Assembly: GCA_964517435.1 (NCBI GenBank)
Contig: CAZFEC010000010.1
Location: 4,371-68,370 of the forward strand
Length of the DNA: 64,000 bases
Source of the DNA: an uncultured Bacteroidia bacterium
Lineage (GTDB): Bacteria; CAIWAD01; BS150m-G50
Direction of reading: 5' to 3'
The notes under the pieces are model-generated. The model did not search any database. It worked only from the letters and a program-made list of their open reading frames with translations, and was not told the DNA's origin. The translations under genes and the position numbers were made by a program. Positions 17,876 through 32,897 of the stretch are shown here, piece by piece (the first letter of the stretch is position 1; every line of letters starts with the position of its first letter).

Positions 17876-17927
17876 GCGGTCTCCAGAAGAGCGAGCGGTG
17901 CGCCTTCGTTTAGCACGTCATTCCCGC

Positions 17928-20873
17928 TCACTCCTCCACGATCAACTGGATTGTCTGGTCGCCCTCAGTTGAGCGGGCGCGCCAACTCCCTTTATCCACG
18001 GTGATTTCCACCCCGTCGGCGCTGAACCGCTTCTCCAGCATTTGCGTGCCCTCCTGCTTGAAGGTGACCGCGATGGTTTCGCCGTTCTGCACCCAGAGGT
18101 GGGTCACCTTGCCGAAGCTGTGCTTCTCCTTACTGGTCGGTTCCCCAAGCTGAGTCGCCACCTGGTCGTAGTTCATCTCCAGGGTGATCACGTTGAAAAG
18201 TGCGGCGGTGGCGTCGGTGGCGGTGCAGGAGGTGCCGCTGCAGCCGGCCAGCTCCGCCAGCATCGCCCGGAGATCACTGCCCATCTCGACGGAGGCGGTT
18301 ACCGTCGGGATATCCGGAAGGACCGGCAGTGAAGTATCGTCCTTACCGCTTAACGCTTCGTAGATGTGTTCCTCGACCGGCTGGCCGAGACCGCCCGCGG
18401 AGTGGGTCGTCATGACCAGCTTGTCGCCCTTGAAAACCGCGACTACCGTCTCCCGCGGCCAGAGCAGGAACTTGCGCTGCCAGACCAGCGCCCGGTCGGC
18501 CAGCTCTTCCAGCTCCAGGATCTGATCCGGCTGACCGAAGATGCCGATCAGTTCCGCCTCGCTCATGTCGGTGGTGATCCGCTCGAGGTCGGCGCCCATC
18601 TTGCCACCTGGAGGCGGACTCACCGCCTCCAGCACGGCGGGGGGCGCGGGAGCGGCAGTTCCGACACCAACCGCGGCGGGTGCTGCGACGTGGCTCGCTG
18701 AGGCGGAGGCTTCCACCTCAACACCAGCCGCCACTTGCTTCACGATCACCTCTATCTGGCGGCACAGCGTTGAATCGGAACCGGCTTCCACCGTCAGAGC
18801 CAGGGCGGGATCTATCGCCAGCAGCTGCAGGTCGAGACCTTCCGCCAGCAACAGGGAGTCATCGGTCACGGTCACAAACAGACAGGTCGAATCGCCTGCT
18901 TCGCCCGTGCCGGTGGTCAACACCTTCTTGATCAGCAGATTTTCATTCTCATCCATCAGCAGTGAATCGATATCATGCAGCGCCAGCAGGGACAGCTCGA
19001 GGGGATCGCAGTCATCGGTAATCCACACCTCGCGCAGCAGCCCTTCCTTACCCTCGGCTCCCGGCAGGGAATTGCATTCAGTCGCCAGCAACGTTGACCA
19101 CTCAAGTGTGTCACAATCGTCAGTAATCCACATTTCTTTGATGATTCCTTCACCGGAATCGATCATCACCAGAGAGTCCACACCGGAAAGGATCAGCGTC
19201 TGCAGGCCGGTGTCGTAGACCGCACTGGTCCCACGCGCTTTCTTGATCGCCCATTCGCCGGAGTCGGCCGTCAGGAGGGAGTCGATGTCGGTGCAGATCA
19301 TAGCGTGCGGCGCGTCCGCTTCAAAAGCGGTAGAGATCTGTATCCGTTTCACTACCTGGGTTTTAGCGTCGAAACCGGGGAGTGAATCCTCGCTGACGCA
19401 GATGAACGAAGCCAGACCGGTGGTGTCGACCGCACCGGAGATCGCCAGCTTTCTGAGCATCCGCTCGTCACCGGCGTCCGTCAGCAGCGAATCGACACAG
19501 GTCAGGATCAGCGTGCGCATGTCCCCCTGCTCGGCACCGCTGATCACCAGCGAGTTCAACAACTGGTCGGTCAACTCCTTCCGCAGCAGCGAATCACAAC
19601 CGGCGAGCCGGGAGGCGTCGATCAGCAGGTTGTCGTTCTCCAGCAGCGTGACGGTGACGGCGTGTGTTTCCGGCCCTGCCGTCTCCTCCTCGGTGACCAT
19701 GACCTTTACTCTGACCGGCTCCGCTCTGTCTTCCCCCGCGATGGCGACGGTGCGCTCCTGCCACTCCGGCAGCAGGCGGCTGCCGATCGGTGTGGTCGCG
19801 GCGACCAGGAAGCTGAACGACAAAAGCGCCAGGGTCAGCGTCAGGCGCAGGCGGCCCCAGCCGCGCTGGTCGTGCCGCCGGGTGAGAATCGCTTCGATCC
19901 TGCGTTTAAACAACTTGCGGGTTAAAAGGAAACCAGCCGAGAGTTCCATTTTTAATCTCCTGCGGGGCAGGGTTTCCGCGATCGCGGTCAGCAGGTTGGC
20001 GTAGCGGACCGGATCGGTGGTCGTGTTGACCACGATGTTGTCACATGCCTCCTCCGCCAATCGAGCCAGACGCTGGGTGGCGAGCCAGAGTAACGGGTTG
20101 AAGAACAGCAACGCACGCAGGACGGCGACGGTTGTAAGCAGCAGCGGATCGCGGCGCTTTAGATGCGCCAGCTCGTGCAGGGCAATGCTCTCCAGCTCGC
20201 CCGGTGCGAGACTGCGGGTCAGATCGACCGGCAGCAGCACCACCGGCCGGCGAATGCCGAAGGTCAGCGGCGTCAACACCTGGCCGCTGGTAAGCAGCTC
20301 GAAGTCGTGCCGGTACTCCAGTCTCCGGGCGGCGGCGGCGAACGTCGCCCGCAGGCGGGGATCGGTAACGGAACGTGCTGTCCGGCGCCAGTCCCGCAGG
20401 CGCAACCGGCCCAGTAGCAGGTTGCCGAGAAAGACACAGCTGCCCAGCAACAGCAAGGTGCCACCCAGCGCCCAGGGATGCTGCCAGAGGTCAATGGCGG
20501 GACGGGCGGGAGGTGCCGGCGGCGGCGCGACCAGGGGAGTGACTGCGTTCGTACGTTGTGGTGTGACGATTCGATAGGAATTCGCGCTGACGGTTTGCAC
20601 GGTCCGGGATTGGTAGTCCGGCAGCAGGCGGATCTCCATCTGCGGTGCGCCCAGGCGGTCGCTCACCAGGCTGCTGAGCGGTAGCAGCGGCAGCAGGCCG
20701 ATCACCGCGATCAGCAGCCAGCCGCGAGCGTCGGCTCCAGAACGTTTAAACCACCAGGTAAGCAGCAACGCGCTGCCCAGCACCAGGGCGGACTGCCAGG
20801 TCAGCGACAGCGCCTGTTTGATCAGCAGGTAGCCGGCCCCGTCGGCCCAGTCGAGGAAGGTTGCGATGCTCAT
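17928..20873 (-). CDS. BlaR1/MecR1-family M56 peptidase signal transducer with a long repeat-containing extracytoplasmic C-terminal region
   Basis: N-terminal TM helices. Zinc motif HELAHLKRRD. 4-nt overlap with the upstream blaI-like gene. The C-terminus has repeated DSLL modules and two BamE/SmpA-like segments. Confidence 0.8.
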   Translation of the reverse strand: MSIATFLDWADGAGYLLIKQALSLTWQSALVLGSALLLTWWFKRSGADARGWLLIAVIGLLPLLPLSSLVSDRLGAPQMEIRLLPDYQSRTVQTVSANSYRIVTPQRTNAVTPLVAPPPAPPARPAIDLWQHPWALGGTLLLLGSCVFLGNLLLGRLRLRDWRRTARSVTDPRLRATFAAAARRLEYRHDFELLTSGQVLTPLTFGIRRPVVLLPVDLTRSLAPGELESIALHELAHLKRRDPLLLTTVAVLRALLFFNPLLWLATQRLARLAEEACDNIVVNTTTDPVRYANLLTAIAETLPRRRLKMELSAGFLLTRKLFKRRIEAILTRRHDQRGWGRLRLTLTLALLSFSFLVAATTPIGSRLLPEWQERTVAIAGEDRAEPVRVKVMVTEEETAGPETHAVTVTLLENDNLLIDASRLAGCDSLLRKELTDQLLNSLVISGAEQGDMRTLILTCVDSLLTDAGDERMLRKLAISGAVDTTGLASFICVSEDSLPGFDAKTQVVKRIQISTAFEADAPHAMICTDIDSLLTADSGEWAIKKARGTSAVYDTGLQTLILSGVDSLVMIDSGEGIIKEMWITDDCDTLEWSTLLATECNSLPGAEGKEGLLREVWITDDCDPLELSLLALHDIDSLLMDENENLLIKKVLTTGTGEAGDSTCLFVTVTDDSLLLAEGLDLQLLAIDPALALTVEAGSDSTLCRQIEVIVKQVAAGVEVEASASASHVAAPAAVGVGTAAPAPPAVLEAVSPPPGGKMGADLERITTDMSEAELIGIFGQPDQILELEELADRALVWQRKFLLWPRETVVAVFKGDKLVMTTHSAGGLGQPVEEHIYEALSGKDDTSLPVLPDIPTVTASVEMGSDLRAMLAELAGCSGTSCTATDATAALFNVITLEMNYDQVATQLGEPTSKEKHSFGKVTHLWVQNGETIAVTFKQEGTQMLEKRFSADGVEITVDKGSWRARSTEGDQTIQLIVEE

Positions 20874-21265
20874 TGTTGATCCCGCTTTTCATAGGCGGCG
20901 ATCAGCCGCTTGATTTCCGTCAGCTCCTCTTCCGGCAGTTCCCGCTCGTCGAGCAGGGTGGCGACCAGCCCGGTCACCGAGCCGTCGAAGGCGCGCTTCA
21001 GCAGATCCTGCACGATGCGGCGGTTGGCTTGTGCCCGCACCACCCGCGCCCGGTAGCGGAAACCGCGTCCCTGGCGGACCCGCTCCAGGTGGCCCTTTTC
21101 CAGCAGGATGGAGAGAATCTTGCGTATGCTGCCGTCGGCCAGGTCGCGGCCCTGCAACCGCAGCGCGTTCTGCATCTCTTCGGTGGACATATCCTCGTGT
21201 TCCCAGAGGATACGCATGAACTCCAGTTCGACTTCGGTGAAGGTGGGGGATTTGCGACCCGGCAT
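20870..21265 (-). CDS. BlaI/MecI/CopY-family transcriptional repressor
   Basis: The wHTH N-terminus FTEVELEFMRILWE...MSTEEMQNAL...IRKILSILLEKGHLERV is typical of BlaI. AGGAGG lies 4 nt upstream of ATG 21265. The track start at 21280 is less likely. Confidence 0.85.
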   Translation of the reverse strand: MPGRKSPTFTEVELEFMRILWEHEDMSTEEMQNALRLQGRDLADGSIRKILSILLEKGHLERVRQGRGFRYRARVVRAQANRRIVQDLLKRAFDGSVTGLVATLLDERELPEEELTEIKRLIAAYEKRDQQ

Positions 21266-21295
21266 GACGCCTCCTAGCATGTTTGTCTCAATATG

Positions 21296-21311
21296 CGAGA
21301 ATCAATTCTCG
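21296..21311. promoter_or_regulatory. Perfect 16-bp palindrome upstream of blaI-like gene (candidate operator)
   Basis: CGAGAAT-CA-ATTCTCG at 21296-21311. An extra GATTCTCG half-site lies at 21359-21366. Confidence 0.45.
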
Positions 21312-21498
21312 TGAGAGTTTATCAAACAGGAGGAGGGTTGTCAAGGAAAAAGAGAAAAGATTCTCGGAAAAGTGGGAGGGAGAATAGCTGGAGGATTTGG
21401 GTTACAAGATAAAATGGCTGAAACGCCTGAGGTTCAAATGGATGCTCAAAGCCTGGCTTGACGGAGTATACATATATGTTGGGTCAATTTCCCTTAAC

Positions 21499-21667
21499 GT
21501 CATTCCCGCGAAAGCGGGAATCCAGGGCCGTTTAAGAAAAGAGGCGCTATTGTAACCGCATTAACGAGCATTGGTATAAATCCCCGCCCCTGAAGCGAAA
21601 CCTGTCGGTTTCGAATGCGGTTTCGTACGCTGCTTCGTATCCGGTTTCGTGACGCGCGGGAATGACG
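21499..21667. repeat. REP/MITE-like palindromic repeat, cluster A
   Basis: GTCATTCCCGCGAAAGCGGGAATCCAG at 21499-21525 and the inverted half CGCGGGAATGACG at 21655-21667. The internal segment CCCCGCCCCTGAAGCGAAACC... resembles 29692-29780. Confidence 0.7.
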
Positions 21668-21677
21668 TACCTTTGCC

Positions 21678-24029
21678 TCAGCTCCTCTCCCCTCCCTTAT
21701 CCAAAATCGCCAGGGCGACCTTCTCCGCCGTGATCGGCATCGACTTGATCCTGATCCCGGTGGCGCGCGCCACCGCGTTGGCCACCAGCGAGGCGGCCGG
21801 AATCATGGTGTGTTCGCCGACCCCCCGCGCTCCGAACGGTCCGTCCGGCTGGGGTACTTCGACGATGATCGGCACCGTCTGGTCGGGGATGTCCATGGCG
21901 GTGGGGATCTTGTAGTCGGTGAAGTTGGGATTGAGCAGCCGGCCCCGCTCGTCGAAGCGCATCTCTTCGTAGAGTGCGGTGGCGAAACCCTGCAGCAGGC
22001 CGCCGGTCACCTGACCCTCCACCAGGTCGGGATTGATCGCCCGCCCCGCGTCCACGGCCAGCGTGGCCTTCAGAATCTTCATCTTACCGGTCGCGGTGTC
22101 GATCTCCAGCACCACGCCCCCGGCGCCGACGGTGTAGTGGACATTGGGATGCCCGCCCTGACTGGTCTCCGGGTCGCTGAGCGCGCTGGTGAATTCCGGC
22201 ATGAACATGCCGCTGCCGACGATCGGACCGCCCCGGAAGGTGCCGTCCTCCAGCTGGATGCCCTGTATCACCACATCCTTCAGGGGTATCGCAAACTCCG
22301 CGTCCCGACGGCAGCGAACCGCCTCCTCCTCCAGATAGAGCTCCTCCACCGGGAACCCATGCACCCGCTGCACCAGCTCGAAGATCCTGTCGCGGGCTTC
22401 CTCAGCGGCCCGTATCACGGCATTACCACAACCCCAGGTGACATGGGAAGCCACCGTCTGCCATTCGTAGGGATTGCGGTCGGTGTCGGGCGTCTCCACG
22501 CGGATCTTCTCCGGCGGCACGGTGAGGATCTCGGCGGCGAGTTGCGCCATCACGGTCAGGTAGCCCTGGCCGATTTCCATACCTGATACGAGGAGGTTGA
22601 GGCTGCCGTCCTCATTGAACTTCAGAAATGCGGTAGAGGAGGCGTTGGGGGGCATCGCCGGCGCTTTCCAGAACAGGGTGACCGCTTTGCCCACCACCTT
22701 GCCCGGGGCGGAGGGCTGTTCCTCCTGCTCCCATTCAATTTCAGCGGCCACCCGGTCGATCGCCTCCCGGAGGCCGTTGGCGTTCATCCTGGCGCCATAG
22801 GCCAGGGTGTCGTTTTCGCTGATGGCGTTCAGCCGGCGCAGCTCCACCGGGTCCAGCTTCAACTCCTGCGCCAGGCGGTCGATGTGCGACTCCAGCCCGA
22901 AGTTGAACTCCGAATAGCCGAAACCGCGATAGGGGCCGCCCGGCGGCAGGTTGGTGTAGATGCAGAGCGAGTCGATCGCCACATGGGGGATGCGATAGGG
23001 CCCGGTGGCGGATAGACCGACGGCGTTTACCACGTTGGCGCCGTATTCCACGTAGGCACCCGCGTCCCACTCCAGGACATGCTCGATGGCGGTCAGGGTG
23101 CCGTCCCGCCTGGCGCCCAGCTTGACTCGCGCCGTTACCCCCTGGCGCTGGTAGGTGTTGTAGAACTCCTGCTCCCGGCTCCAGCGCACCTTCACCGGAT
23201 GGCCCTTGACGGCGGTGGCGAGCGCGGCGCCGAGGATCTCCATCGAAACGCCCGCCTTGCCGCCGAAGCCGCCGCCCACGTAGGGAGTGACGACACGGAT
23301 ATCCTGGTGCCGGAGCCCCAGCGGCGCCAGGGCCTCGGCGAAGAGATGGCGCTGGGTGTGCGGCGATTGCGAGGCGGACCAGAGGGTGAGCCTTCCGGAA
23401 TTATCCAGTTTACCGACGATGACATGCGGCTCGATGGCGCAGTGGGCGTAGCGCGGTACCTGGTAGGTGTCCTCGAGTACCACATCCGCTTCCGCGAAAC
23501 CCTGGGCGACGTCCCCTTTGCGGGTCTTGCGGAAGTGGGCGATGTTGGTGCCGCTCCGGGGGAAGAACCAGGGCACATGGGGATAGTCGCCCAGGTCGGG
23601 GTGGATCAGCGCCGCATCTCCAGCGAGCGCGTCCGCCGCGTTGAGGATCGGGGGCAGCTCCTCATAGTCGACCTCCACCAGCGACGCCGCGCGTTTGGCC
23701 GCGTGCGGGTCACGGGCGATGACCGCCGCCACCTGCTCCCCCACGAACCGTACCCGGTCCTGGGCGAAGATGTGCCGGTCCTTCATGTAGAGACCGAACC
23801 GGTAGGGGAAGTCCGCGCCGGTCACCACCTTTACCACGCCGGGTGCCTTGGCGGCCGCCGTGGTGTCGATGCCCTTGATCAGGGCGTTGGCGTGGGGACT
23901 CTCGACGATCTCCGCGTAGAGCAGATCGGGACCGAATTCCAGGTCGTCCACGAACTGCGCGGCGCCGGTGACCTTCTCCAGGCCGTCGATGCGGCTGACC
24001 GGTTTGCCTACGAATCGCTGTTCCTGCAT
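21678..24029 (-). CDS. Xanthine dehydrogenase / aldehyde oxidase family molybdopterin-binding large subunit
   Basis: 783 aa. N-terminus VGKPVSRIDGLEKVTGAAQFVDD. GGGFGGK motif. C-terminal ARGVGEHTMIPAA. It follows the 2Fe-2S and FAD subunit genes. Confidence 0.9.
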   Translation of the reverse strand: MQEQRFVGKPVSRIDGLEKVTGAAQFVDDLEFGPDLLYAEIVESPHANALIKGIDTTAAAKAPGVVKVVTGADFPYRFGLYMKDRHIFAQDRVRFVGEQVAAVIARDPHAAKRAASLVEVDYEELPPILNAADALAGDAALIHPDLGDYPHVPWFFPRSGTNIAHFRKTRKGDVAQGFAEADVVLEDTYQVPRYAHCAIEPHVIVGKLDNSGRLTLWSASQSPHTQRHLFAEALAPLGLRHQDIRVVTPYVGGGFGGKAGVSMEILGAALATAVKGHPVKVRWSREQEFYNTYQRQGVTARVKLGARRDGTLTAIEHVLEWDAGAYVEYGANVVNAVGLSATGPYRIPHVAIDSLCIYTNLPPGGPYRGFGYSEFNFGLESHIDRLAQELKLDPVELRRLNAISENDTLAYGARMNANGLREAIDRVAAEIEWEQEEQPSAPGKVVGKAVTLFWKAPAMPPNASSTAFLKFNEDGSLNLLVSGMEIGQGYLTVMAQLAAEILTVPPEKIRVETPDTDRNPYEWQTVASHVTWGCGNAVIRAAEEARDRIFELVQRVHGFPVEELYLEEEAVRCRRDAEFAIPLKDVVIQGIQLEDGTFRGGPIVGSGMFMPEFTSALSDPETSQGGHPNVHYTVGAGGVVLEIDTATGKMKILKATLAVDAGRAINPDLVEGQVTGGLLQGFATALYEEMRFDERGRLLNPNFTDYKIPTAMDIPDQTVPIIVEVPQPDGPFGARGVGEHTMIPAASLVANAVARATGIRIKSMPITAEKVALAILDKGGERS

Positions 24030-24040
24030 TGCTCGCTCAA

Positions 24041-24156
24041 TTGTTTACGATGCCCAAACAGTGCCTAGGGCTGCTATCATGTTGCACCCCTTCAGGGTGC
24101 TCACTCTATTGTCTACGATACCCAAGGCTGCACCCTGGGCTGGCATGTTGCACCCC
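24041..24156. repeat. Imperfect tandem duplication (~50 nt units) inside the 191-nt spacer between the small and large subunit genes
   Basis: Unit 1 at 24041-24090 (TTGTTTACGATGCCCAAA...CATGTTGCACCCC). Unit 2 at 24109-24156 (TTGTCTACGATACCCAAG...CATGTTGCACCCC). GCACCC/GGGTGC hairpin at 24084-24100. Confidence 0.5.
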
Positions 24157-24220
24157 GTTCCAAAGCGAAGCCCCGTACTTCGTACGCAGCCTCGCAGCGG
24201 GGCGCCCCCTCGATTATCCG

Positions 24221-24709
24221 TCACTTCCCCGCCGCCAGCACGGCGTCGATGATCTGCCGATAGCCGGTGCAGCGGCAGAGGTTCCCGGCGATCGCCTCCC
24301 GGACCTCCTCCTCCGTGGGGTGCGGATTACGCTCGAGCAATTCCGTGGTGGCCAGGACGATGCCGGGAGTGCAGAAGCCGCACTGGAAGGCGTTGCGGGC
24401 GACGAAGGACTCCTGCAGCGGCGTCGGCTCCTCGCGGGAGAGGTACTCGACTGTCTTGATTTCCGCGCCATCCGCTTCCACCGCCAGGATCAGACAACTC
24501 CGGACGCTGCGGCCGTTGAACAGAACCGTACAGGCGCCGCAATCGCCCCGTTCGCAACCGATCTTGGGACTCTTGATCCCCAGCCTGTCGCGCAGTACAT
24601 CGAGCAGGATCTCATGCGGCCACACATCGACCGTGCGGGATTCACCGTTCAGCGTCAGGGTGATGCTGTGGCGTCCCTGCGGTGGCGTTTCCAGTTTCTT
24701 TTGCGTCAT
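24221..24709 (-). CDS. (2Fe-2S)-binding small subunit of the XDH-family enzyme
   Basis: GCERGDCGACTV and CGFCTPG motifs and NLCRCTGY, the standard CoxS/XdhC-type pattern. Confidence 0.9.
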   Translation of the reverse strand: MTQKKLETPPQGRHSITLTLNGESRTVDVWPHEILLDVLRDRLGIKSPKIGCERGDCGACTVLFNGRSVRSCLILAVEADGAEIKTVEYLSREEPTPLQESFVARNAFQCGFCTPGIVLATTELLERNPHPTEEEVREAIAGNLCRCTGYRQIIDAVLAAGK

Positions 24710-24721
24710 GATGCCACTCTC

Positions 24722-25618
24722 CTATATCAACGGCGTTCCCAGGGCCGGTCCCGCGCCCGCCAGCCTGTCGGCGGCCGCCAGCAGGCCCCGCTCCAGCATC
24801 AGCTTTACCATGTGCAGGCGGTATTCCCGGGTGGCGCGGATGTCGGTGATGGGCGAAATCTCCTCCGGGACCAACTCCCGGGTGGCCACCAGCTGCTCCG
24901 CGCTGAGGGTTTTACCCGCCAGCAGGCTTTCGATACGGCGTCCCCGCACCGGTGTGGGCGCCACCGCTCCGAAAGCGATCCGGTACTCGTCACCGGTCAG
25001 CGCCAGGACGGCTACACTGGCCTGGGCCAGATCCTCTCCCTGGTAGCGGCCCAGCCGCGCCCAGGCGCCGCCGTGCTTTTCCCCCGGCCGCGGCACCAGG
25101 ATACCGGTCACCAGTTCGCCGCACGCCAGGGCGGTCTGCTTGGGACCGGTGAACCAGTCGGTGATGGGAATGACGCGCTCACCCCGCGGTCCCTGCACCA
25201 GCACCTCCGCCTCGTAAACCAGCAGCACGGGGCCGCCATCGCAGGAGGGCACGGCGGAACAGATGTTGCCCGCCAGGGTGGCGCGGTTACGCAGACCATT
25301 GGAAGCCACGGTGCGGGACATCTCCCCCAGCAGCGGAAACTTTTCCATCACCAGGTCCGATTCGATCAGCTGGTTAAAAGTGACCAGCGCCCCGATCCGG
25401 AGCCCGTCCTCCCTCTCTTCAAGCTGGTCCAGCCCTGCCAGCGCCTTGATGTCCACCAGGACCCGCGGATCATCCAGGCCGTCCCGCAGCCAGGCGACCA
25501 GGTCGGTGCCGCCGGCCAGCACCCGGGCCGCGTCGCCGTGCTCGGCCAGCAGCTCCACCGCCGCCGGCAGGCTCTGCGGTTTGTAGTATGCGAATTCACC
25601 CGCGATAGCCATCTCCAC
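24722..25618 (-). CDS. FAD-binding medium subunit of the XDH-family enzyme
   Basis: LAGGTDLV motif, ATLAGNI motif, about 298 aa, CoxM-like arrangement. Confidence 0.85.
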   Translation of the reverse strand: MEMAIAGEFAYYKPQSLPAAVELLAEHGDAARVLAGGTDLVAWLRDGLDDPRVLVDIKALAGLDQLEEREDGLRIGALVTFNQLIESDLVMEKFPLLGEMSRTVASNGLRNRATLAGNICSAVPSCDGGPVLLVYEAEVLVQGPRGERVIPITDWFTGPKQTALACGELVTGILVPRPGEKHGGAWARLGRYQGEDLAQASVAVLALTGDEYRIAFGAVAPTPVRGRRIESLLAGKTLSAEQLVATRELVPEEISPITDIRATREYRLHMVKLMLERGLLAAADRLAGAGPALGTPLI

Positions 25619-25659
25619 TCCCGCTCGTTATCGATCCATACTGCGCAGTGCGTCCTCGT

Positions 25660-26481
25660 CTAACGGCCGGGCGGCAGCATCGCCACGATCCGACACATCG
25701 ACGATTCCAGCTCGATCCCTTTCAAGGGGAAGCAGCCGATCCAAACCCGCTTGTTGTTGAGCTTGTCGATATCGCCGCCCAGGTTCTCCGCGTGCACCAG
25801 CTTCCTCGGGAACAGCTTCAGATGCATGACCTGATAGTAGGTCTCCTGCGGGAACAGCTCGTCCCACTTCCTGCCGTACTTCGCAAACAGTTTGGCTTCC
25901 GCTTTTTCGAACAGCTCCGGGTGCCAGTTGCGGATGATCGTGTTCATCGGATGGTCAGCGCTGCCGCAATCGACGCCGATCCAGTTCAACTTCATCTTCA
26001 GCGCCCACTTGTGGAACTCCGGATCGGGTCCCGGATGCTTGACGAAGTAACGGATCTCATCCGATCTGGGCTGATCCCAGCCGTACTTGTGGTAGCCGGT
26101 GTTGATGATCAGGATGTCCCCCTTCTTCACCTCCACCTTGCTGGTGATCATCTCCGGCGAATAGAGATCGTAATCGCCCACTTCCTGCGAGATGTCGACC
26201 ACCACGCCGGGACCGACCCACTCCTTCAGCGGCACCTGGCCGATGGTGCGGCCGCTGGCGTGGAAATGGATCTCGCCGTCCATGTGCGTGCCGACATGAT
26301 TGCTGGTAGTGATGATCTGGCCGTTGGCACCCTGTCCCATGTGGGCGCCGGCGATACGCTTGAAATACTGGATCCCCAGCGGCATGTAACTCGGCCAGGG
26401 CGGGGTGTGCACGCTGAGGTCCTGGGTCAGGTCGTAGAGTTTGACCCGGTCCATGAACTTGAGGAATTCTACGGTCTTCAT
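25660..26481 (-). CDS. Putative cyclase / arylformamidase-family metal hydrolase
   Basis: HVGTHMDGEIHF matches the HxGTHxDxPxH-type motif of the cyclase family. GGAG lies 6 nt upstream of ATG 26481. The track start 26526 is an alternative. Confidence 0.7.
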   Translation of the reverse strand: MKTVEFLKFMDRVKLYDLTQDLSVHTPPWPSYMPLGIQYFKRIAGAHMGQGANGQIITTSNHVGTHMDGEIHFHASGRTIGQVPLKEWVGPGVVVDISQEVGDYDLYSPEMITSKVEVKKGDILIINTGYHKYGWDQPRSDEIRYFVKHPGPDPEFHKWALKMKLNWIGVDCGSADHPMNTIIRNWHPELFEKAEAKLFAKYGRKWDELFPQETYYQVMHLKLFPRKLVHAENLGGDIDKLNNKRVWIGCFPLKGIELESSMCRIVAMLPPGR

Positions 26482-26526
26482 TTTGATCTCCAGGGCTTGA
26501 GTGACGCGGGGTGCCGCGGCACGCAT

Positions 26527-27945
26527 TTATCTCTTTGTCGTTTGATCCAGGCTGGCGGCAAACCCCTCAAAGGCCTGCCGAAAGGGCTCCAGCGGCGCAC
26601 TGAGTACACCCGCTCCCACCTGTCCGACCCCCGGCTCGCGGTGCGCGACACCGGTGTCGATGAAGGGCAGGATGTTCTTCTCAATCACCTTGCGCACGTC
26701 GATGGCGGTGGGGGTGCCGCGGAAGTCCAGGTAGGGGATCTGGTAGACGGTGTTCTCGGCGGCGGTGATCTCGTACATCTGCTGCGTGTAGTTCAAGGCG
26801 TCGCCGGTGCTGCCGCCGACGAACTGCACGATCGCCGGGGCGGCGGCGATGGCGAAACCGCCCAGGCCGCCCGTCTCCGTGATGGAGCTGTCACCGATGT
26901 CGGGATTGGCGTCCGCTTTACTGTAGCCGGGAAAGAAGAGGGCGTCCGGGACCGCCGCGGGGCCGGTGAACCAGGTGCCGCCGGTGCCGGCCAGCTGGAT
27001 GCCGAAATCGGTACCGTTGCGGGACATGGCCACCAGCAGGCTGCTGCCGGGGATGTTGCGGGCGGCGTCCAGAGTGACCTTGCAGGCGGGCATCGAGAGG
27101 TTCAGGAAGAAGTGATCGTTGTTGTTGATGAACTCCAGCACCTCCCCGGAGGTGCCCCGGTAGTCGCCGGCCTTTACGATGGCGGGTGCAATCGTCCGAT
27201 AGAAGAGCGAGGTGGCCGCACGGTTGCGGTTGTGGACCTCGTCCCCCATGTGCAGCGCCTGGGCGATGATGCTCTTCAGGTCGATCTCCCCCAGCGCGGC
27301 GATCGCGTCCTTCAGCGCGGGATAGAGCACCCCCTCCATCCACTTGAGCTTCGCCAGCACCTCTGACGAATAGGCGCCGTAGCGGAGCACCTTGCCCAGC
27401 CCTTCGTTCATGGTACAGTAGGCCTGGTTGCCGTACTCCAGGTTTTTGAGGATGAAGACCGGCATGGAGGGGGAGACGACCCCCGCCATCGGTCCCACAG
27501 TGTCATGTTCGTGACAGGGAGCGAACTCCAGCTCGCCGGAGGCCGCCAGCGCTTCCGCCGCGGCAGCGTCCGTGGCCCGCTCCTCGTAGAGCAGGGCGCC
27601 GATCACCGCGCCGCGCATCGGTCCGCACATCCGCTCCCAGGTGACCGGCGGACCGGCGTGCAACAGCAGGTTGTCGTGCAGGCCGGGGATGACCGTGCGC
27701 GCCGGCGCCATGCCGACCAGGTGCGGCCGGCCCCGCTGGATGATCTCCACCACTTTGGCGTTGGCCGCTTCGATTTCGGCGCGGTGTTCAGCGATGATGT
27801 GCGTCGCGGCGGGATCCACCTCGACCGGCGGTTGCCACTCCACCTGTACCGATGCGGTGCCGCTGCTGTCGAGGCTCTCCCTGAAGGAGGGGAGTCCCAG
27901 GTTGATCACTTTCAGATCGCGGTTGAAGAGATCTTTTATCGACAT
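26527..27945 (-). CDS. DUF1116 (YlbE-like) protein, partner of FdrA
   Basis: About 472 aa, immediately downstream of the FdrA-like gene with a 10-nt overlap. The assignment rests mainly on the conserved fdrA-ylbE-ylbF neighbourhood. Start taken at ATG 27945 (MSIKDLF...). Confidence 0.55.
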   Translation of the reverse strand: MSIKDLFNRDLKVINLGLPSFRESLDSSGTASVQVEWQPPVEVDPAATHIIAEHRAEIEAANAKVVEIIQRGRPHLVGMAPARTVIPGLHDNLLLHAGPPVTWERMCGPMRGAVIGALLYEERATDAAAAEALAASGELEFAPCHEHDTVGPMAGVVSPSMPVFILKNLEYGNQAYCTMNEGLGKVLRYGAYSSEVLAKLKWMEGVLYPALKDAIAALGEIDLKSIIAQALHMGDEVHNRNRAATSLFYRTIAPAIVKAGDYRGTSGEVLEFINNNDHFFLNLSMPACKVTLDAARNIPGSSLLVAMSRNGTDFGIQLAGTGGTWFTGPAAVPDALFFPGYSKADANPDIGDSSITETGGLGGFAIAAAPAIVQFVGGSTGDALNYTQQMYEITAAENTVYQIPYLDFRGTPTAIDVRKVIEKNILPFIDTGVAHREPGVGQVGAGVLSAPLEPFRQAFEGFAASLDQTTKR

Positions 27946-29477
27946 GATGTGTCTTCCTGCAGTTGGATGATCTCGCCCGCCAGACGGCAGGCAGCGGCGT
28001 TGGTGGGCATGACTTCGACGCCCAGTTCGCGCAGGGCGGCGACCACCCACCCCCGTTGCTGCGGATCCCGGTCGGTGCCGGTGACCGAGCAGACAACGGC
28101 GACCTGGCCCTGGATCAATACCTCCCGCAGTTCCGCCACCGGGTCGGGATTGGCGCCGTAGCCGAGCACGACATCCAGCAGAATCACCGCCGTGGTCGGG
28201 TTCGCCGCCTCCGCCAGGATCCGCTGGTTGCGCAAAGTGTAGTCGATCATCGGGTGCGGCCGGCCGACGGTGAAATCGTCGTCGCCCAGGTCCACCACCG
28301 TGTGGCCGACGCTCGCCAGAGCGTCGTCGAGCTGGAGCGCCCCGCCGGTGGGAACGTTGGAATGGAGGGGTGAGATTTTCTCGCTCAGCACAACCTGCGC
28401 CTCGGTGCAGAAGGTGCCGCCGCAGAACAGGCCGCGCAGGTGGAGGCGGGCGGGCTCCAGCTCGCTTTGCAGGCGCGCGGCGGTTTGTTTCAACTCATGG
28501 TCGCTTTGTTCAATTTCCCCGGCTACTGAATCCGGGTCGTGATTGCGTGTGATAGCAACGGCGGCCCGAGCGGCATCTTCCAGAGTGAACAGCGGGAAGC
28601 CTTTCACGATTCGCGGGCTGCCGAGGAACAGCGTCACCACCGGTTTGGGGATCTCGGCGCAGACCCGCTCGATTTCCGCCGCGACCTCAGGGTGGGGCGG
28701 CTTGGAGATCAGGACGATGGTATGCGTGGCGGGATCCTCACCCAGGGCTTTGAGCGCGGCGAGCGAGGTGGCGCCGCCAACCTCCCGGGAGAGATCGCGG
28801 CCACCGGTGCCGATCGCCTGCGAGATCCCCAGCCCCGCGTTGTGAATGAAGCAGCTGACCTCCTGCAGACCGGTACCGGAAGCGGCGACAATGCCGATAT
28901 CACCCCGGTCGACGGCGTTGGCGAAACCGAGGGGAACGCCGTTGATGATGGCACTGCCGCAGTCGGGCCCCATCACCAGCAGCTCCTGCTGTTGCCCCAG
29001 CTGTTTGAGCTCGATTTCCTCTTCGAGGGGGACATTATCGGAGAAGAGCATGACATGCAACCCCAGCTCCAGCGCCCGGCGGGCCTGGGCGGCGGCAAAG
29101 CGTCCCGCCACCGAAATCAGCGCCAGGTTAGCGTCCGGCACCGTCTCCAGGGCACCCTCCACGCTCCGTGGTTGAAAATCGGTGGTTCCCTCGTCCCGCT
29201 CCCGCGTCCTGGCGAGTTCCTCAACTACCTGTTCCACGACCCGCGCGGCGATCTCCCCGCTCTCGACCTTGAGGCTGATCAACAGATCGGCGGAGCCGGC
29301 TTCGGCGAACTCCGCCACCAGCAGACCGGCCGTCTCCAGGATGGCCAGGTTCTCCGGCGTTCCCATGACCACGGCGGCCTCCTGAACGCCATCCAGCTCC
29401 GTGATCTTGCCGGCGATATTCATCAGAGTAACGGAGTCGTAGTAGCGTCCCTGGATGATATGGCCGGTGGTTAGCAT
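27936..29477 (-). CDS. fdrA: FdrA-like acyl-CoA synthetase / succinyl-CoA-synthetase-alpha-fold protein
   Basis: GRYYDSVTLM N-terminus like FdrA. CoA-ligase-type segments GIVAASGTGLQEV and SQAIGTGGRD. The track start 29543 lies inside the repeat element (GGGAATGAC), so ATG 29477 is preferred. Confidence 0.75.
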   Translation of the reverse strand: MLTTGHIIQGRYYDSVTLMNIAGKITELDGVQEAAVVMGTPENLAILETAGLLVAEFAEAGSADLLISLKVESGEIAARVVEQVVEELARTRERDEGTTDFQPRSVEGALETVPDANLALISVAGRFAAAQARRALELGLHVMLFSDNVPLEEEIELKQLGQQQELLVMGPDCGSAIINGVPLGFANAVDRGDIGIVAASGTGLQEVSCFIHNAGLGISQAIGTGGRDLSREVGGATSLAALKALGEDPATHTIVLISKPPHPEVAAEIERVCAEIPKPVVTLFLGSPRIVKGFPLFTLEDAARAAVAITRNHDPDSVAGEIEQSDHELKQTAARLQSELEPARLHLRGLFCGGTFCTEAQVVLSEKISPLHSNVPTGGALQLDDALASVGHTVVDLGDDDFTVGRPHPMIDYTLRNQRILAEAANPTTAVILLDVVLGYGANPDPVAELREVLIQGQVAVVCSVTGTDRDPQQRGWVVAALRELGVEVMPTNAAACRLAGEIIQLQEDTSCR

Positions 29478-29538
29478 GGGGGTGGTGTCCTCTCGATTCT
29501 CATTCTTAATGGCATCCCGGGATTCAACCTTTTTCCAA

Positions 29539-29810
29539 GTCATTCCCGCGAAGGCGGGAATCCAGAGTTGTCATTTCTGAGTAACGCCCGCCTCAGCAGA
29601 TTGCTGAGTGTGGGCAAACTTCTCCATTTGGGCAGTTATTGGTGTTGGCTGTCTAGATTCCCGCCTTCGCGGGAATGACTTGTTCTTTGTTACCCCGCCC
29701 CTAAAGCGAATCCTGCCTGAAGCGAAGCCTTCGGCTTCGAGGTGGGCTTCGAGATGGGATTCGTGCGCACGGGTATGACGTCCGTTTTTCTCTTCTTTGC
29801 GGGAATGACT
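29539..29810. repeat. REP/MITE-like palindromic repeat, cluster B
   Basis: GTCATTCCCGCGAAGGCGGGAATCCAG at 29539-29565. Inverted copy AGATTCCCGCCTTCGCGGGAATGAC at 29655-29679. Degenerate halves CACGGGTATGACG at 29768-29780 and TGCGGGAATGACT at 29798-29810. Confidence 0.75.
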
Positions 29811-30623
29811 TTCCCTCCTGACCGTCATCAACAACCCGGTGCAGAAATCGGCGCCGGAGGTCTCGCCGCGGGTCAGGAGTTGTCGGGCACAGCGGGTGAT
29901 CTCAGTCTGATCAGGGTGGAGCAGAGCGGTCAGCAGTGCCTTCACCGCAACGTGGATGCGGCCCTCCTTGGCCAGGCGCAGGAAGGTGTCGGAGATGAGG
30001 TTGCCGCTTCGGGCCGCCGCGTAGATGCTCTCTACAGGCGGATAAGGGATCTGCCCGGTTGTACGACGGACAAAATTGAGGGCGATCAACATCCCGCAGA
30101 TGTAATCGTCACCGCCCGGGGTCAGTCCGAAACCGCAACCCTTGACCGCCCGAACGCCGGCGATGGTATCGCCCGTCTCGATCTTCCGTACGCCGGCGGA
30201 GACTCTGTCCACCAGTGCCTGCTCGAAGCTGGTAGTGAAATTCGTAATACGTCCATCGTCCAACAGGAAGACCAAACTCCTGGGGTGAGCCTCGTCTACT
30301 ATCAGCTTTTCCAGGAAGTTCAGATTGGTCAGGAGGAATTCCTCCTGCATTTCGCCACAGTTGAGATCGGAATTGAATCGGTGGCTAGGCAGGATATCCC
30401 AGTTGGCATCACCCAGGGTTATCGCATTCTCGGTTATTGTCAGAACGGAGGGTTGAGGTGGGCGGATCTCCCGCACGACGATGTTCAGCGGCCCGGCGCC
30501 CACCTCCGGCTCCACCAGGGAGACGAGACCCCCCGTTCCGCTGTAATTGATCACCCGCCGGAAGCGGGAGTGCTCCCGGTAGAGACCCGGTTGAACCCTG
30601 TCACCTACACTGATGAGCATCAC
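29571..30623 (-). CDS. DUF2877 (YlbF-like) protein; the last ~80 codons read through the repeat cluster
   Basis: Positioned directly upstream of fdrA, as in the fdrA/ylbE/ylbF set. From about codon 268 the ORF is encoded by repeat cluster B (..RRESHSRKEE..SFPRRRESR..). Confidence 0.45.
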   Translation of the reverse strand: MMLISVGDRVQPGLYREHSRFRRVINYSGTGGLVSLVEPEVGAGPLNIVVREIRPPQPSVLTITENAITLGDANWDILPSHRFNSDLNCGEMQEEFLLTNLNFLEKLIVDEAHPRSLVFLLDDGRITNFTTSFEQALVDRVSAGVRKIETGDTIAGVRAVKGCGFGLTPGGDDYICGMLIALNFVRRTTGQIPYPPVESIYAAARSGNLISDTFLRLAKEGRIHVAVKALLTALLHPDQTEITRCARQLLTRGETSGADFCTGLLMTVRRESHSRKEEKNGRHTRAHESHLEAHLEAEGFASGRIRFRGGVTKNKSFPRRRESRQPTPITAQMEKFAHTQQSAEAGVTQK

Positions 30624-30967
30624 GCTTCCCTGAAAACCATCCCGTAAAACTGATCGTAGGCGTCGCGCCTGACCACTTCCACCTCCCCCTTCACCGCCAT
30701 CCCTATACGTGGATCGGCGCTCTCCAGCTGCCCCAGGATCTTCAAGCCGTTCTCCAGCTCTACGATGGCCAGTCCCAGCTTGGCAACCATGAAATCGGGC
30801 GGCAGGGTGTGCACCTGGGTGAAGGTGACCACCTTGCCGGTGCGGGGCAGCGGCACCGGGTCGAATTCGTTATGCTCGTTCTCGCCGCACTTTTTGCACA
30901 CCATGCGGTAGGGGTAATGCAGGTGGCCACACTTCCGGCACTTGTAGGCGTATATCTCCCTGATCAT
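30620..30967 (-). CDS. DUF35 zinc-ribbon/OB-fold protein (thiolase partner)
   Basis: CRKCGHLHYPYRMVCKKCG zinc ribbon followed by an OB-like segment. 4-nt overlap with the thiolase-like gene. Confidence 0.8.
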   Translation of the reverse strand: MIREIYAYKCRKCGHLHYPYRMVCKKCGENEHNEFDPVPLPRTGKVVTFTQVHTLPPDFMVAKLGLAIVELENGLKILGQLESADPRIGMAVKGEVEVVRRDAYDQFYGMVFREA

Positions 30968-32145
30968 GACTGGTCCTCCCGGCTGAAGGTGAGACAGACG
31001 ACATTGTTGCCGAAGCCGCCGAAATTGCAGGTGAAACCGGTGCGGGCATCTTTGACCTGACGCTCGCCGGCCCGGCCGCGCAGCTGCAGCACGATCTCGT
31101 GCGCCTGCCCGATGCCGGTGGCGCCGACCGGGTGTCCCTTGCCCTTCAGACCGCCGGAGGGGTTGATCGGCAGCTTGCCGCCCAGGGCGGTCTCACCCCG
31201 CTCCAGGGCCAGGTGACCCTCCCCCCTGGGGAAGAACCCCGCCTCCTCGCTCTGCGCGATCTCCAGGATGGTGAAGGCATCATGCAGCTCCGCCACATCG
31301 ACGTCGCCGGGCTTGATCCCGGCCATGGCAAACGACTGCGCCGCCGCCTTGCGCACCGCCTTCAGTTCCGTGGGATCCTCCCGTTCGTGGACCGCGTGGG
31401 TATCTGTGGCCTGACCGACACCGGCCAGCCGGATCAGCGGCTGCTCCACCTCGCGCGCCACCTCTTCCGAGGCCAGAATCACGCAGGCACCACCGTCGGA
31501 AACGGGACAGCAATCGAAGAAGCGCAGCGGTTCCGCCACGAAAGGATTGTTGGTCATCGCTTCAGGTGAATCCAGGATGCCTTCCACCGTGATCTTCTGC
31601 TGCAGGTGGGCGAACTCATTCAAGAGGGCGTTGTTCTGGTTTTTCACAGCGACCATGGCCAGGTGCCGGTCGGTGACGCCGTACTTTTCCATGTAGAGCC
31701 GGGTGAACATGCCGGCCAGCGCCGGCAGGGTGGTGCCGTAGATGTGCTCGGCCAGGGGGTGAGTCAGCGTCGCCACGAAATCGGTGGCCTCGAGGTTGTT
31801 CACCTCCCGCATCCGCTCCGCGCCGGTCACCATGACCACATCGTGGAAACCGGAAGCCACCGCCAGGAAGCCCTGTTTGATGGCCGAGGCGCCGGAGGCG
31901 GGTCCGTTCTCGATGGTCTCCGCCCCCGCGGGAGAGAGACTGAGCGTGTCCACGACCGCGCTGGCCAGGGCGGTCTGGTGGTTGACCCGGCCGCCCCCCA
32001 TGTTGGCCACGTAGAGGTGGTCGACCTGCACTCCGGGGCAGTCTTTGCGCGCCATCATGGCGGGATAGGCGGCGATTTCGGAAAGGGGATACTCGAGCCG
32101 GGTGAAGCTGGTGATGCCGATACCGATCACGTAGACCTTTCTCAT
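30964..32145 (-). CDS. Thiolase-like (SCP-x type) protein
   Basis: 393 aa. C-terminal GHPVGATGIGQAHEIVLQLRG and NFGGFGNNVV are typical of the thiolase fold. Confidence 0.85.
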   Translation of the reverse strand: MRKVYVIGIGITSFTRLEYPLSEIAAYPAMMARKDCPGVQVDHLYVANMGGGRVNHQTALASAVVDTLSLSPAGAETIENGPASGASAIKQGFLAVASGFHDVVMVTGAERMREVNNLEATDFVATLTHPLAEHIYGTTLPALAGMFTRLYMEKYGVTDRHLAMVAVKNQNNALLNEFAHLQQKITVEGILDSPEAMTNNPFVAEPLRFFDCCPVSDGGACVILASEEVAREVEQPLIRLAGVGQATDTHAVHEREDPTELKAVRKAAAQSFAMAGIKPGDVDVAELHDAFTILEIAQSEEAGFFPRGEGHLALERGETALGGKLPINPSGGLKGKGHPVGATGIGQAHEIVLQLRGRAGERQVKDARTGFTCNFGGFGNNVVCLTFSREDQS

Positions 32146-32897
32146 GATGACGCCTCCCCCGTCTGCCGCCAGCGCTGCAGCATGAGGGCGCTGCCGGTGC
32201 CGTCATATTTGGCGCGGGAGGCCGCCAGCAGGTCTTCGGGCGGTGTCGGCGGGTCACTTGGGGGGAGGATGGCCGCCTGAGCCTTTTCCAGCAGTTCCGG
32301 CGGCACCGGGCGGCGGCCGATCACCAGGCTGTCCCGGGCCCGGTCGAACAGCTCCCGGGTCAGCACCCAGGAGGGAACCCCGCCCAGCTCGTGCGGCGTC
32401 TCGAACCGCTTCTCCAGCTTGTATTCGATCATCCAGCGCCGGAAGCCGATGGGGGACTCCGCCACCACCAGTACGTCCTGCTGGTTAAGGATATCGATGT
32501 GGTATTCCATCTTGGCGGCGAAGGCGTGCGCGCCGATCCTTAAGCCCCGCCGCATGGCCAGCGTGTGGTAGGACACCCCCACCTCCGGGCTGAGCATGCG
32601 GCCGTTGACCACCGCCGCCAGTTCGCCGTCGATCTGGGCGACCAGCACATACTCGTCCTGAACCCGGTGGTGGTAGTAGGCCAGCAGTTCCGCGTAGACG
32701 CGTGCCGCCACGACATCGTAGTAGTCCCGCTCCACCTGTATCAGGGGTCCCACATGGCGGAGGATGTCGGGCATCTCATCGCGCGTGGCCTGGCGCACGA
32801 CCAGGTCTTCGCCGCTGGCGATCTTCATGTATTTGGCGGGGAAGGGGGGCATCGGGTTGTCGACGGGACGCAGGATTTTTTCCAGGTCTACGGACAT
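32142..32897 (-). CDS. Hypothetical protein, first gene of the long catabolic operon
   Basis: AAGGAGGT lies 6 nt upstream of ATG 32897. 4-nt overlap with the thiolase gene. No motif I recognise. Confidence 0.5.
   Translation of the reverse strand: MSVDLEKILRPVDNPMPPFPAKYMKIASGEDLVVRQATRDEMPDILRHVGPLIQVERDYYDVVAARVYAELLAYYHHRVQDEYVLVAQIDGELAAVVNGRMLSPEVGVSYHTLAMRRGLRIGAHAFAAKMEYHIDILNQQDVLVVAESPIGFRRWMIEYKLEKRFETPHELGGVPSWVLTRELFDRARDSLVIGRRPVPPELLEKAQAAILPPSDPPTPPEDLLAASRAKYDGTGSALMLQRWRQTGEASS

Follow-up and report, generated by a model that had tools for sequence, protein, structure and literature searches.

What is broken down by an operon that joins homologs of the Escherichia coli oxamic transcarbamylase to a cyclase-family hydrolase, a molybdenum hydroxylase of the xanthine dehydrogenase (XDH) family and a thiolase-like protein? 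The question is raised by a stretch of 64,000 nucleotides, called the window in the following, from an uncultured Bacteroidia bacterium (assembly GCA_964517435.1, contig CAZFEC010000010.1), in which ten co-directional open reading frames (ORFs), each of them uninterrupted, occupy the minus strand at positions 21678-32897. An original prediction had delimited these ten genes and named their domain families; all of the ORFs were found in place, and the families were confirmed by Pfam and NCBIfam. It had further proposed an undescribed catabolic route for an N-heterocycle, in which molybdenum-dependent hydroxylation is followed by hydrolysis of a ring amide, and this general idea is supported by the analyses presented here. 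The operon appears to be a so far uncharacterised form of ureide and pyrimidine catabolism and is phylogenetically widespread. It is likely to serve the catabolism of a nucleobase or ureide with carbamoyl phosphate as a product, and the nucleobase would probably be uracil and/or thymine. The specific scheme that we favour, with not quite even confidence, is an oxygen-independent conversion of uracil through barbiturate and ureidomalonate to carbamoyl phosphate and malonamate, of which we infer the substrate as well as every reaction. No description of this gene combination was found in the full-text literature, which is no proof of absence as subscription journals are mostly uncovered there. 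From the first gene to the last the operon consists of the following features.

32142..32897, minus strand, GNAT-fold protein of 251 residues from an unannotated family
30964..32145, minus strand, thiolase-fold protein of 393 residues without the nucleophilic cysteine
30620..30967, minus strand, DUF35 protein of 115 residues with zf-ChsH2 (PF12172) and OB_ChsH2_C (PF01796) domains
29571..30623, minus strand, homolog of AllH (DUF2877; PF11392, 71.6 bits)
27936..29477, minus strand, homolog of AllF (FdrA) with CoA_binding and Ligase_CoA domains
26527..27945, minus strand, homolog of AllG (DUF1116) of 472 residues (PF06545, 330 bits)
25660..26526, minus strand, cyclase-family metal amidohydrolase of the KynB or isatin-hydrolase type (PF04199, 119 bits)
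24722..25618, minus strand, FAD subunit of 298 residues with FAD_binding_5 and CO_deh_flav_C domains
24221..24709, minus strand, subunit of 162 residues for two [2Fe-2S] clusters with Fer2 and Fer2_2 domains
21678..24029, minus strand, molybdenum cofactor (Moco) subunit of 783 residues with Ald_Xan_dh_C, MoCoBD_1 and MoCoBD_2 domains

The central trio connects the operon with a characterised enzyme. E. coli FdrA, YlbE and YlbF were established in 2024 as the oxamic transcarbamylase AllFGH (PMC11326118), and the purified enzyme interconverts oxalurate plus phosphate and carbamoyl phosphate plus oxamate (PMC11326118). The association of fdrA-ylbE-ylbF with oxamate, named in the original prediction, has thus been borne out, and the CoA-level activation that had been proposed there is not supported, the E. 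coli trio being a phosphorolytic carbamoyltransferase and not a CoA ligase. The AllF homolog of the window exceeds the cut-off of NF004760, 'acyl-CoA synthetase FdrA' (475 against 433 bits), and shows 39% identity with E. coli FdrA/AllF in an alignment of 514 residues that begins at residue 29 of the long ORF. AllG, which is single-copy in this genome, shares 46% identity with YlbE/AllG over 412 residues, and AllH shares 28% with YlbF/AllH over residues 108-266. The likeness to the E. coli allFGHK system, in which AllFGH is accompanied by the carbamate kinase AllK (PMC11326118), lies in the same three subunit families and in the shared principle that a ureido group is recovered as carbamoyl phosphate, here in a presumably anaerobic setting. 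The two systems differ in gene order (H-F-G in the window, F-G-H in E. coli), in the position of the carbamate kinase gene, which is present in this genome too but not adjacent (contig C29), and in the partners of the window-type trio, which always include a cyclase-family hydrolase and in most cases a molybdenum hydroxylase as well. The substrate of AllHFG is probably a ureide other than that of the E. coli enzyme.

The gene that follows AllG encodes the candidate ring-opening enzyme. Its metal motif HVGTHMDGEIH (NHVGTHMDGEIH), of the HxGTHxDxxxH type, aligns with that of kynurenine formamidase (4cob), and the fold family (PF04199) and the His/Asp metal-binding motif are shared with KynB and isatin hydrolase. 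About 100 residues can be aligned with the solved members of these two types, at E-values of 1e-10 or weaker, and the protein of the window, 288 residues in length, is set apart from them by a long C-terminal extension and by its ureide context. Among the 80 best loci, which come from more than 10 phyla, the cyclase is 74-85% identical. Stop codons interrupt the cyclase match in several small-genome relatives, as a single in-frame TAA or TGA in G048, G044, G142, G118, G096 and G173 and as two TAA in G093; these may reflect faults of assembly, pseudogenes or an overlap of start and stop codons.

The last three genes encode a molybdenum hydroxylase with the three-subunit architecture (Moco, FAD and twice [2Fe-2S]) of 4-hydroxybenzoyl-CoA reductase (4-HBCR; 1rm6) and bacterial XdhABC. 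The Moco subunit, however, reaches no NCBIfam equivalog cut-off, and on the equivalogs of these two enzymes it scores only about half of the cut-offs. Its top scores are with TIGR03194 for the alpha subunit of 4-HBCR (517 against a cut-off of 995) and NF043082 for XdhA (516 against 780), the xanthine dehydrogenase models NF007426 (496 against 916), TIGR03196 (429 against 784) and TIGR02965 (298 against 850) are also missed, and the closest solved relative is 4-HBCR (1rm6, 348 bits). The FAD subunit scores 125 with the 4-HBCR model TIGR03195, whose cut-off is 405. It contains only three cysteines and so has no room for the 4Fe-4S insertion that is found in the FAD subunit of 4-HBCR. A maximum-likelihood tree was restricted to proteins of the cluster, their paralogs and the two E. 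coli proteins XdhA and XdhD. In it the 20 Moco subunits linked to the cluster group together with support of 100/100 on a long stem of 1.24 changes per site, separate from the paralogs of this genome (three) and of the relative G025 (three) and from both E. coli proteins; equivalog scores and the ranks of phmmer matches in the PDB were used in place of a tree with the nicotinate, quinoline, CO, caffeine and 4-HBCR enzymes. The expectation that the Moco subunit would fall outside the clades of known function thus holds, as judged by the missed equivalog cut-offs and the separate clade. Phyla are intermixed in the tree, and the nearest neighbour of the window's protein belongs to a metagenome-assembled genome of the Fibrobacteraceae. 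The positions of the conserved Gln and the catalytic Glu align with E. coli XdhA. The residue that follows GGFGGK is Ala, at a position presumably occupied in bovine XDH by the substrate-binding Glu802. E. coli XdhA is a poor reference for the substrate-binding residues of the bovine enzyme, and the equivalents of Glu802 and Arg880 are given no weight as evidence.

To what extent these genes belong together is indicated by their distribution. The cyclase protein was scanned against one genome per species, which gave at least 465 relatives, and the best 80 were examined further. These 80 loci come from Verrucomicrobiota, Elusimicrobiota, Eisenbacteria, Zixibacteria, Ignavibacteriota, Chlorobiota, Acidobacteriota, Spirochaetota, Bacteroidota, Gemmatimonadota, Bdellovibrionota and others, and their hosts, uncultured bacteria, are mostly known from sediment and groundwater metagenomes. 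In tblastn searches with the ten proteins, the succession AllH-AllF-AllG-cyclase-FAD-FeS-Moco was syntenic in most of them. Enough DNA on both sides for full coverage was available at 41 loci. All ten genes in identical order, the commonest form, were present in 25 of these; nine had the core without the front module of GNAT, thiolase-like and DUF35 genes, two had the GNAT gene without the thiolase-like/DUF35 pair, and in total the front module was missing in 14. A complete hydroxylase directly after the cyclase gene was found in 36 of the 41, it was missing in four (one of them reduced to the cyclase alone), and it was partial in one more. The core is thus formed by AllH-AllF-AllG-cyclase together with the three-subunit molybdenum hydroxylase, and the GNAT/thiolase-like/DUF35 module is optional. 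The survey of cluster conservation that had been suggested in the original prediction shows the ten-gene order recurring across more than 10 phyla. The split into independently conserved sub-operons, which had been named there as evidence against a single cluster, is seen in part, for the front module (14 of 41) and the hydroxylase (four or five of 41), next to a ten-gene order that remains the commonest form. The same order in dozens of loci from other phyla places the arrangement far beyond chance. Median identities to the proteins of the window are 80% for the cyclase, 79% for the thiolase-like protein, 73% each for the GNAT and Moco proteins, 69% for AllG, 52% for AllF and 35% for AllH.

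A conserved neighbour (transporter, regulator and carbamate kinase genes were sought) was not found, as no flanking family occurs in more than five of the 80 loci; the cassette is therefore self-contained. The cluster was not found in a genome from the same genus, 97% complete, or in nine genomes from its class, which, together with the mixing of phyla in the Moco tree, fits horizontal spread. In family f67, five loci (L133-L135, L137 and L138, in G150, G122, G118, G126 and G134) have extra genes between the first cyclase gene and the hydroxylase genes, namely another AllG-like gene and an ORF of roughly 550 residues in which two cyclase domains are fused, and in this variant a Glu-type NAT permease is encoded 1.3-2.3 kb upstream of AllH.

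Clues to the substrate are provided by the genes that accompany the cluster in its relatives. In a lineage of small genomes (that of G034, with families f25, f66 and f67), 13 of 20 sampled loci have an NCS2/NAT permease next to the cluster or close by, directly after the Moco gene and co-oriented in eight and 1.3-2.3 kb upstream of AllH in five. The permease motif, ENIG....T[G/R], opens with Glu as in E. coli RutG, whereas XanQ and UacT have Gln at this position; the NAT signature motif bears on specificity (PMC5972032). In a second, unrelated lineage (that of G025, nine genomes from five families) the operon is made of AllH-AllF-AllG, a cytosine-deaminase-like gene, the cyclase and a uridine phosphorylase, with the deaminase gene missing from one of the nine genomes. 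The deaminase-like protein scores 386 bits with NF005748 (cut-off 438) and the phosphorylase 277.8 bits with TIGR01718 (cut-off 280.3), twice its DeoD score, and both added enzymes would be expected to produce uracil. The accompanying genes, for permeases of nucleobases, a deaminase resembling that of cytosine and a phosphorylase of uridine, lend no support to the analogy with aromatic and steroid pathways from which the front module had originally been interpreted. A biosynthetic reading, with ring closure by the 'cyclase', was set aside because the context genes are catabolic or serve uptake.

Further clues come from the rest of the genome, which is 94% complete. E. coli AllA, AllC, AllD, AllE and AllW gave no match in it by tblastn, and an allantoin route was rejected for this reason. 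Contig C28 (about 20366-28893) holds a cluster similar to that for reductive urate degradation in E. coli, with hyuA-, ssnA-, xdhABC-, ygeY- and ygeW-like genes, and a ygfK homolog with 44% identity lies on contig C41 at 16954-20073. With these genes, which resemble those of the reductive urate pathway (PMC12507026), purines already have a route in this genome. XDH-family loci are four in number (contigs C10, C17, C24 and C28). Rut genes, uridine phosphorylase, cytosine deaminase and a NAT permease were not found in the genome, and PreA gave one weak match of 29% identity. PF09663, the family of AtzD/TrzD-fold barbiturases, had no match in the genome, a weak negative given that the control genomes gave none either. 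The carbamate kinase on contig C29 scores 332.6 bits with NF009007 (cut-off 266), and such a kinase is also present in all four cluster-bearing relatives.

In the scheme that we favour, the molybdenum hydroxylase would oxidise uracil at C6 with water to barbiturate (and thymine to 5-methylbarbiturate), and the cyclase-family amidohydrolase would open the barbiturate ring to ureidomalonate. Ureidomalonate is an N-acylurea and the next homologue of oxalurate, longer by one CH2, and AllHFG could split it with phosphate into carbamoyl phosphate and malonamate in the way E. coli AllFGH acts on oxalurate. From carbamoyl phosphate the unlinked carbamate kinase would produce ATP, NH3 and CO2. An amidase of the amidase-signature family is encoded after the Moco gene in five Verrucomicrobiota loci, which fits an amide as the product of the core; in four Ignavibacteriota loci an AMP-forming ligase gene stands ahead of the GNAT gene.

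The first two intermediates proposed here, barbiturate and ureidomalonate, are those of the classical oxidative pyrimidine pathway. That pathway, known from Rhodococcus and Mycobacterium, proceeds through uracil/thymine dehydrogenase (EC 1.17.99.4), barbiturase (EC 3.5.2.1) and ureidomalonase (EC 3.5.1.95). It is also described in PMC4051656. The route proposed for the window would differ from it in the ring-opening enzyme, which has the cyclase fold instead of the AtzD/barbiturase fold, and in the fate of the ureido group, which would be recovered as carbamoyl phosphate by phosphorolysis instead of being released as urea by hydrolysis. Its hosts, unlike those of the classical pathway, are presumably anaerobes.

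The three-carbon amide that remains would be processed by the optional front module; this is the most conjectural step of the scheme and the role is speculative. The first protein of the module, of 251 residues, had been left as unknown and has no match at E<=0.01 in Pfam and NCBIfam, and it can now be given a fold. Its AlphaFold2 model has a mean predicted local distance difference test score (pLDDT) of 81, and Foldseek found 155 matches in the PDB at E<=0.001; the 50 matches listed, with probability 1.00 and target TM-scores up to 0.66, are all GNAT-fold proteins, nearly all of them N-acyltransferases. On the strength of this model the protein has a GNAT fold. Its homologs make up 2649 clusters at 90% identity, and among the 120 clusters listed there is no Pfam domain and no name other than 'hypothetical protein'. 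The alignment of 21 orthologs has a mean column identity of 75%, and a stretch of the R-x-x-G-x-G type, RRGLRIG, is nearly invariant; we infer from the sequence that it may be the CoA-binding motif.

The second protein was described as an SCP-x-type thiolase. The fold stands, with 152 bits for Thiolase_C_1 and 76 bits for Thiolase_N, and the enzymatic assignment does not, as the nucleophilic cysteine is replaced. The closest solved relatives are the archaeal-type acetoacetyl-CoA thiolases 7yvy (257 bits) and 6esq (214 bits), and Pro82 of the window's protein aligns with the active-site Cys of both. Proline occupies this position in 34 of 34 orthologs, so that ordinary thiolysis is excluded and the thiolytic cleavage originally proposed falls with it; by its sequence, the product of this 'thiolase' gene is not a canonical thiolase. 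The motif ENGPASG is invariant in 34 of 34 orthologs, His338 of the GHP(V/I)GATG histidine loop is likewise invariant, and Cys373 is present in 32 of 34. The third protein, DUF35, has four invariant zinc-ribbon cysteines (C10, C13, C24 and C27 in 16 orthologs).

Beside the operon of the G025 lineage stands a second thiolase-fold gene devoid of the cysteine codon. It is divergent from the AllHFG/CodA-like/cyclase/Udp operon in L012 (4695-6259, in G025) and likewise in L114, L115, L117 and L118, and its product carries Ser in place of the nucleophile and shares 40% identity with the protein of the window. A NUDIX gene precedes it in L012, and tblastn found no DUF35 gene.

A complex of the three front-module proteins has been considered as well. 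The GNAT partner predicted together with the thiolase-like and DUF35 proteins reached a score of 0.57, against 0.00 for the best of three controls. Of 80 solved complexes, 58 reach the mark used for such scores, as do 2 out of 110 mismatched pairs, but scores that pass at 0.60 or lower belong to only seven of those 80 complexes and to both of the mismatched pairs that passed. Contact agreement between the runs was at least 66% and the pLDDT of the partner at least 74. The prediction lends weak support to the GNAT protein joining the thiolase-like and DUF35 proteins in a complex. A comparable gene arrangement is known from the archaeal complex of acetoacetyl-CoA thiolase, 3-hydroxy-3-methylglutaryl-CoA (HMG-CoA) synthase and DUF35 (6esq, 6et9) and from Ltp2-ChsH2 (6ok1), where the thiolase-fold gene likewise adjoins those of DUF35 and of a further enzyme. 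This further partner has a GNAT fold in the window and is HMG-CoA synthase in the archaeal complex, and the archaeal thiolases have retained the nucleophilic Cys that is Pro in the window. Ltp2, too, presumably has no catalytic cysteines. The GNAT fold and the invariant Pro82 fit a processing at the CoA level without thiolysis, and one possibility is that an acyl group is transferred to CoA and the product then decarboxylated to acetyl-CoA, in a complex scaffolded by DUF35, similar to that of the archaeal thiolase and HMG-CoA synthase. In its fullest form the proposal would describe a widespread, oxygen-independent pyrimidine fermentation with four new functions: the hydroxylase would be a uracil/thymine dehydrogenase of the XDH family, the cyclase-fold enzyme a barbiturase, AllHFG a ureidomalonate:phosphate carbamoyltransferase of the AllFGH type, and a GNAT/thiolase-fold/DUF35 complex, with the thiolase nucleophile missing, would turn malonamate into acetyl-CoA without thiolysis; we regard this undescribed pathway as possible rather than probable.

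Several observations weigh against the uracil-to-malonamate scheme. The operon of the G025 lineage has the clearest uracil-producing genes and yet no hydroxylase, and none of the three XDH-family Moco genes of G025 belongs to the cluster clade. Acidobacteriota have a hydroxylase-less four-gene version, AllF-AllG-cyclase-AllH (L046 5311-13211, L062 4487-13316, L075 2-5345), which in L046 and L062 adjoins a Gln-motif NAT permease of the xanthine/urate-carrier type. The permeases score 232-281 bits with the xanthine-permease subfamily against 122-130 with the uracil permease, all of these values being below the cut-offs. The operon of the window contains no permease or regulator gene. The carbamate kinase is encoded also in the same-genus genome that has no cluster, so its presence does not discriminate. 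As to the front module, a transfer from amide to thioester would be uphill unless coupled, and the GNAT gene occurs in some loci without its thiolase-like and DUF35 neighbours. In Acidobacteriota, an MFS transporter gene flanks the four-gene version in L046 and L075.

The operon of the G025 lineage leaves two options: either uracil is oxidised there by another enzyme, or the base is attacked by the cyclase without prior oxidation. The second option leads to an alternative that we consider unlikely, in which the cyclase would open uracil itself to 3-ureidoacrylate and AllHFG with phosphate would yield carbamoyl phosphate and 3-aminoacrylate, the latter decaying to malonic semialdehyde and NH3 in an oxygen-free counterpart of the Rut pathway. 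The molybdenum enzyme would then be an accessory, for instance for the oxidation of malonic semialdehyde to malonate, and aldehyde oxidoreductases are indeed members of the XDH family, or for feeding another base into the route. We know of no precedent for a hydrolytic opening of uracil, an aromatic ring, that is not preceded by an oxidation or a reduction. For xanthinase, direct hydrolysis of the uracil-like ring of xanthine is documented (PMC12507026). A uridine phosphorylase and a cytosine-deaminase-like gene stand in one operon with the cyclase and AllHFG in G025, whose genome has no cluster-clade Moco gene, and versions with and without the hydroxylase have cyclases of 73-76% mutual identity, which suggests one substrate for both. 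The regular presence of the complete hydroxylase right behind the cyclase (36 of the 41 fully covered loci) speaks against this alternative, however, and the amidase of some loci and the common GNAT gene fit an amide product, not aminoacrylate. The first option also has candidates: in the hydroxylase-less lineages, each of five genomes tested has three XDH-family genes, and the three enzymes of the G025-lineage genomes could oxidise uracil.

The permeases of the Acidobacteriota loci direct attention to purines. In such a version, which appears quite unlikely, the hydroxylase would be a hypoxanthine/xanthine dehydrogenase, the cyclase a xanthine amidohydrolase forming 4-ureido-5-imidazolecarboxylate, and AllHFG would release carbamoyl phosphate from this product. 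The chemistry is known from the clostridial xanthinase pathway (PMC12507026), models of the XdhA type score on the Moco subunit as high as any, and the hydroxylase-less Acidobacteriota loci adjoin permeases that have Gln in the motif, as do XanQ and UacT, and that find their best NCBIfam match in the xanthine-permease subfamily. Clusters with a hydroxylase, by contrast, are accompanied by permeases of the Glu (RutG) type, and in the G025 lineage the two added enzymes score as a cytosine deaminase and a uridine phosphorylase. The Moco subunit remains below the xanthine dehydrogenase equivalog cut-offs in a clade apart from XdhA and XdhD, the decarboxylase and the aminoimidazole and imidazolone hydrolases that a purine route would call for are not in the cluster, and the genome holds a separate cluster of the urate type.

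It appears improbable that AllHFG is a true oxamate carbamoyltransferase, supplied with oxalurate by a hydroxylase and cyclase acting on a five-membered ureide (for example hydantoin, through 5-hydroxyhydantoin and parabanate), with the oxamate handled by the front module or the amidase. The only characterised homolog does work on oxalurate and oxamate, the identity of AllG to its E. coli counterpart is 46%, and an amidase is encoded downstream in some loci; but allantoin and ureidoglycolate genes were not found in the genome, no source of hydantoin-type substrates is encoded, and the context genes of the relatives concern uracil, cytosine and uridine. Finally, the degradation of an aromatic or N-heterocyclic acid by hydroxylation, amide hydrolysis, CoA activation by FdrA and thiolysis by the thiolase/DUF35 pair, a reading that follows from the original prediction, is very improbable, for although the closest solved Moco protein is that of 4-HBCR (348 bits), FdrA has CoA_binding and Ligase_CoA domains, and DUF35/thiolase pairs work in anaerobic aromatic pathways with BbsAB models matching weakly, the scores stay far below the cut-offs (BbsA 42 against 250, BbsB 154 against 750), Pro replaces the thiolase nucleophile in all 34 orthologs, the FAD subunit has no 4Fe-4S insertion, FdrA, DUF1116 and DUF2877 form a carbamoyltransferase in E. 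coli, and none of the related loci has aromatic-pathway genes.

The layout of the operon required some corrections of the gene models. Overlaps of 4 nt join GNAT/thiolase-like, thiolase-like/DUF35 and DUF35/AllH, AllF and AllG overlap by 10 nt, and the other junctions have gaps of at most 45 nt with two exceptions, the AllH-AllF stretch and the spacer ahead of the Moco gene. This spacer, between the 2Fe-2S and Moco genes (24030-24220), is unusual in its length of 191 nt, and repeats had earlier been noted in it. The AllH-AllF junction comprises about 330 nt full of repeats and includes two copies of a hairpin of the repetitive extragenic palindromic (REP) type, which has four exact matches in the window where 0.02 are expected by chance.

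29543-29560 and 29658-29675, no strand, REP-type hairpins TTCCCGC-N4-GCGGGAA inserted between AllH and AllF
21503-21520, no strand, REP-type hairpin 158 nt past the Moco stop codon
35596-35613, no strand given, fourth copy of the REP-type hairpin, outside the operon

The hairpin at 21503-21520 is likely to mark the 3' end of the operon. The family resembles REP elements or miniature inverted-repeat transposable elements, and two of its copies lie inside the operon, in the AllH-AllF interval. The AllH ORF is about 80 codons too long: orthologs measure about 272-280 residues, homology stops near residue 270 of 350, and the native part ends near 29810, the ORF being lengthened by read-through into the REP-type insertion after residue 270 or so. 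The first ATG of the FdrA ORF (29543) falls within a hairpin and is hence a false start. As tblastn alignments of FdrA with its orthologs begin at residues 23-29, the true start of AllF is most likely the conserved ATG at 29477. For the cyclase the start is probably Met16 (26481). The strong ribosome-binding site predicted for the first gene, AAGGAGGT, was recovered 6 nt ahead of the ATG at 32897, a start that is backed by 20 orthologs of the GNAT-fold protein. The flanks are unrelated to the operon, with a BlaI/BlaR1-like pair downstream, and a divergent MNT/HEPN-type pair and an amino-acid permease upstream.

The cluster is compact and self-contained and consists of soluble-enzyme families only, which makes the proposed reactions directly testable by heterologous expression. 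If the favoured scheme is true, functions would be gained for several large families whose annotation is wrong or missing, namely for a GNAT-like family of more than 2600 clusters, for a highly conserved cyclase subfamily, for a distinct clade of molybdenum hydroxylases and for a thiolase-fold protein devoid of its cysteine. The newly found AllFGH type of transcarbamylase would extend past oxalurate. The operon would also fill a gap in the breakdown of pyrimidines by anaerobes that have neither the reductive (Pyd) nor the oxygen-dependent (Rut) route, and it would show how such anaerobes may gain ATP from the ureido group.

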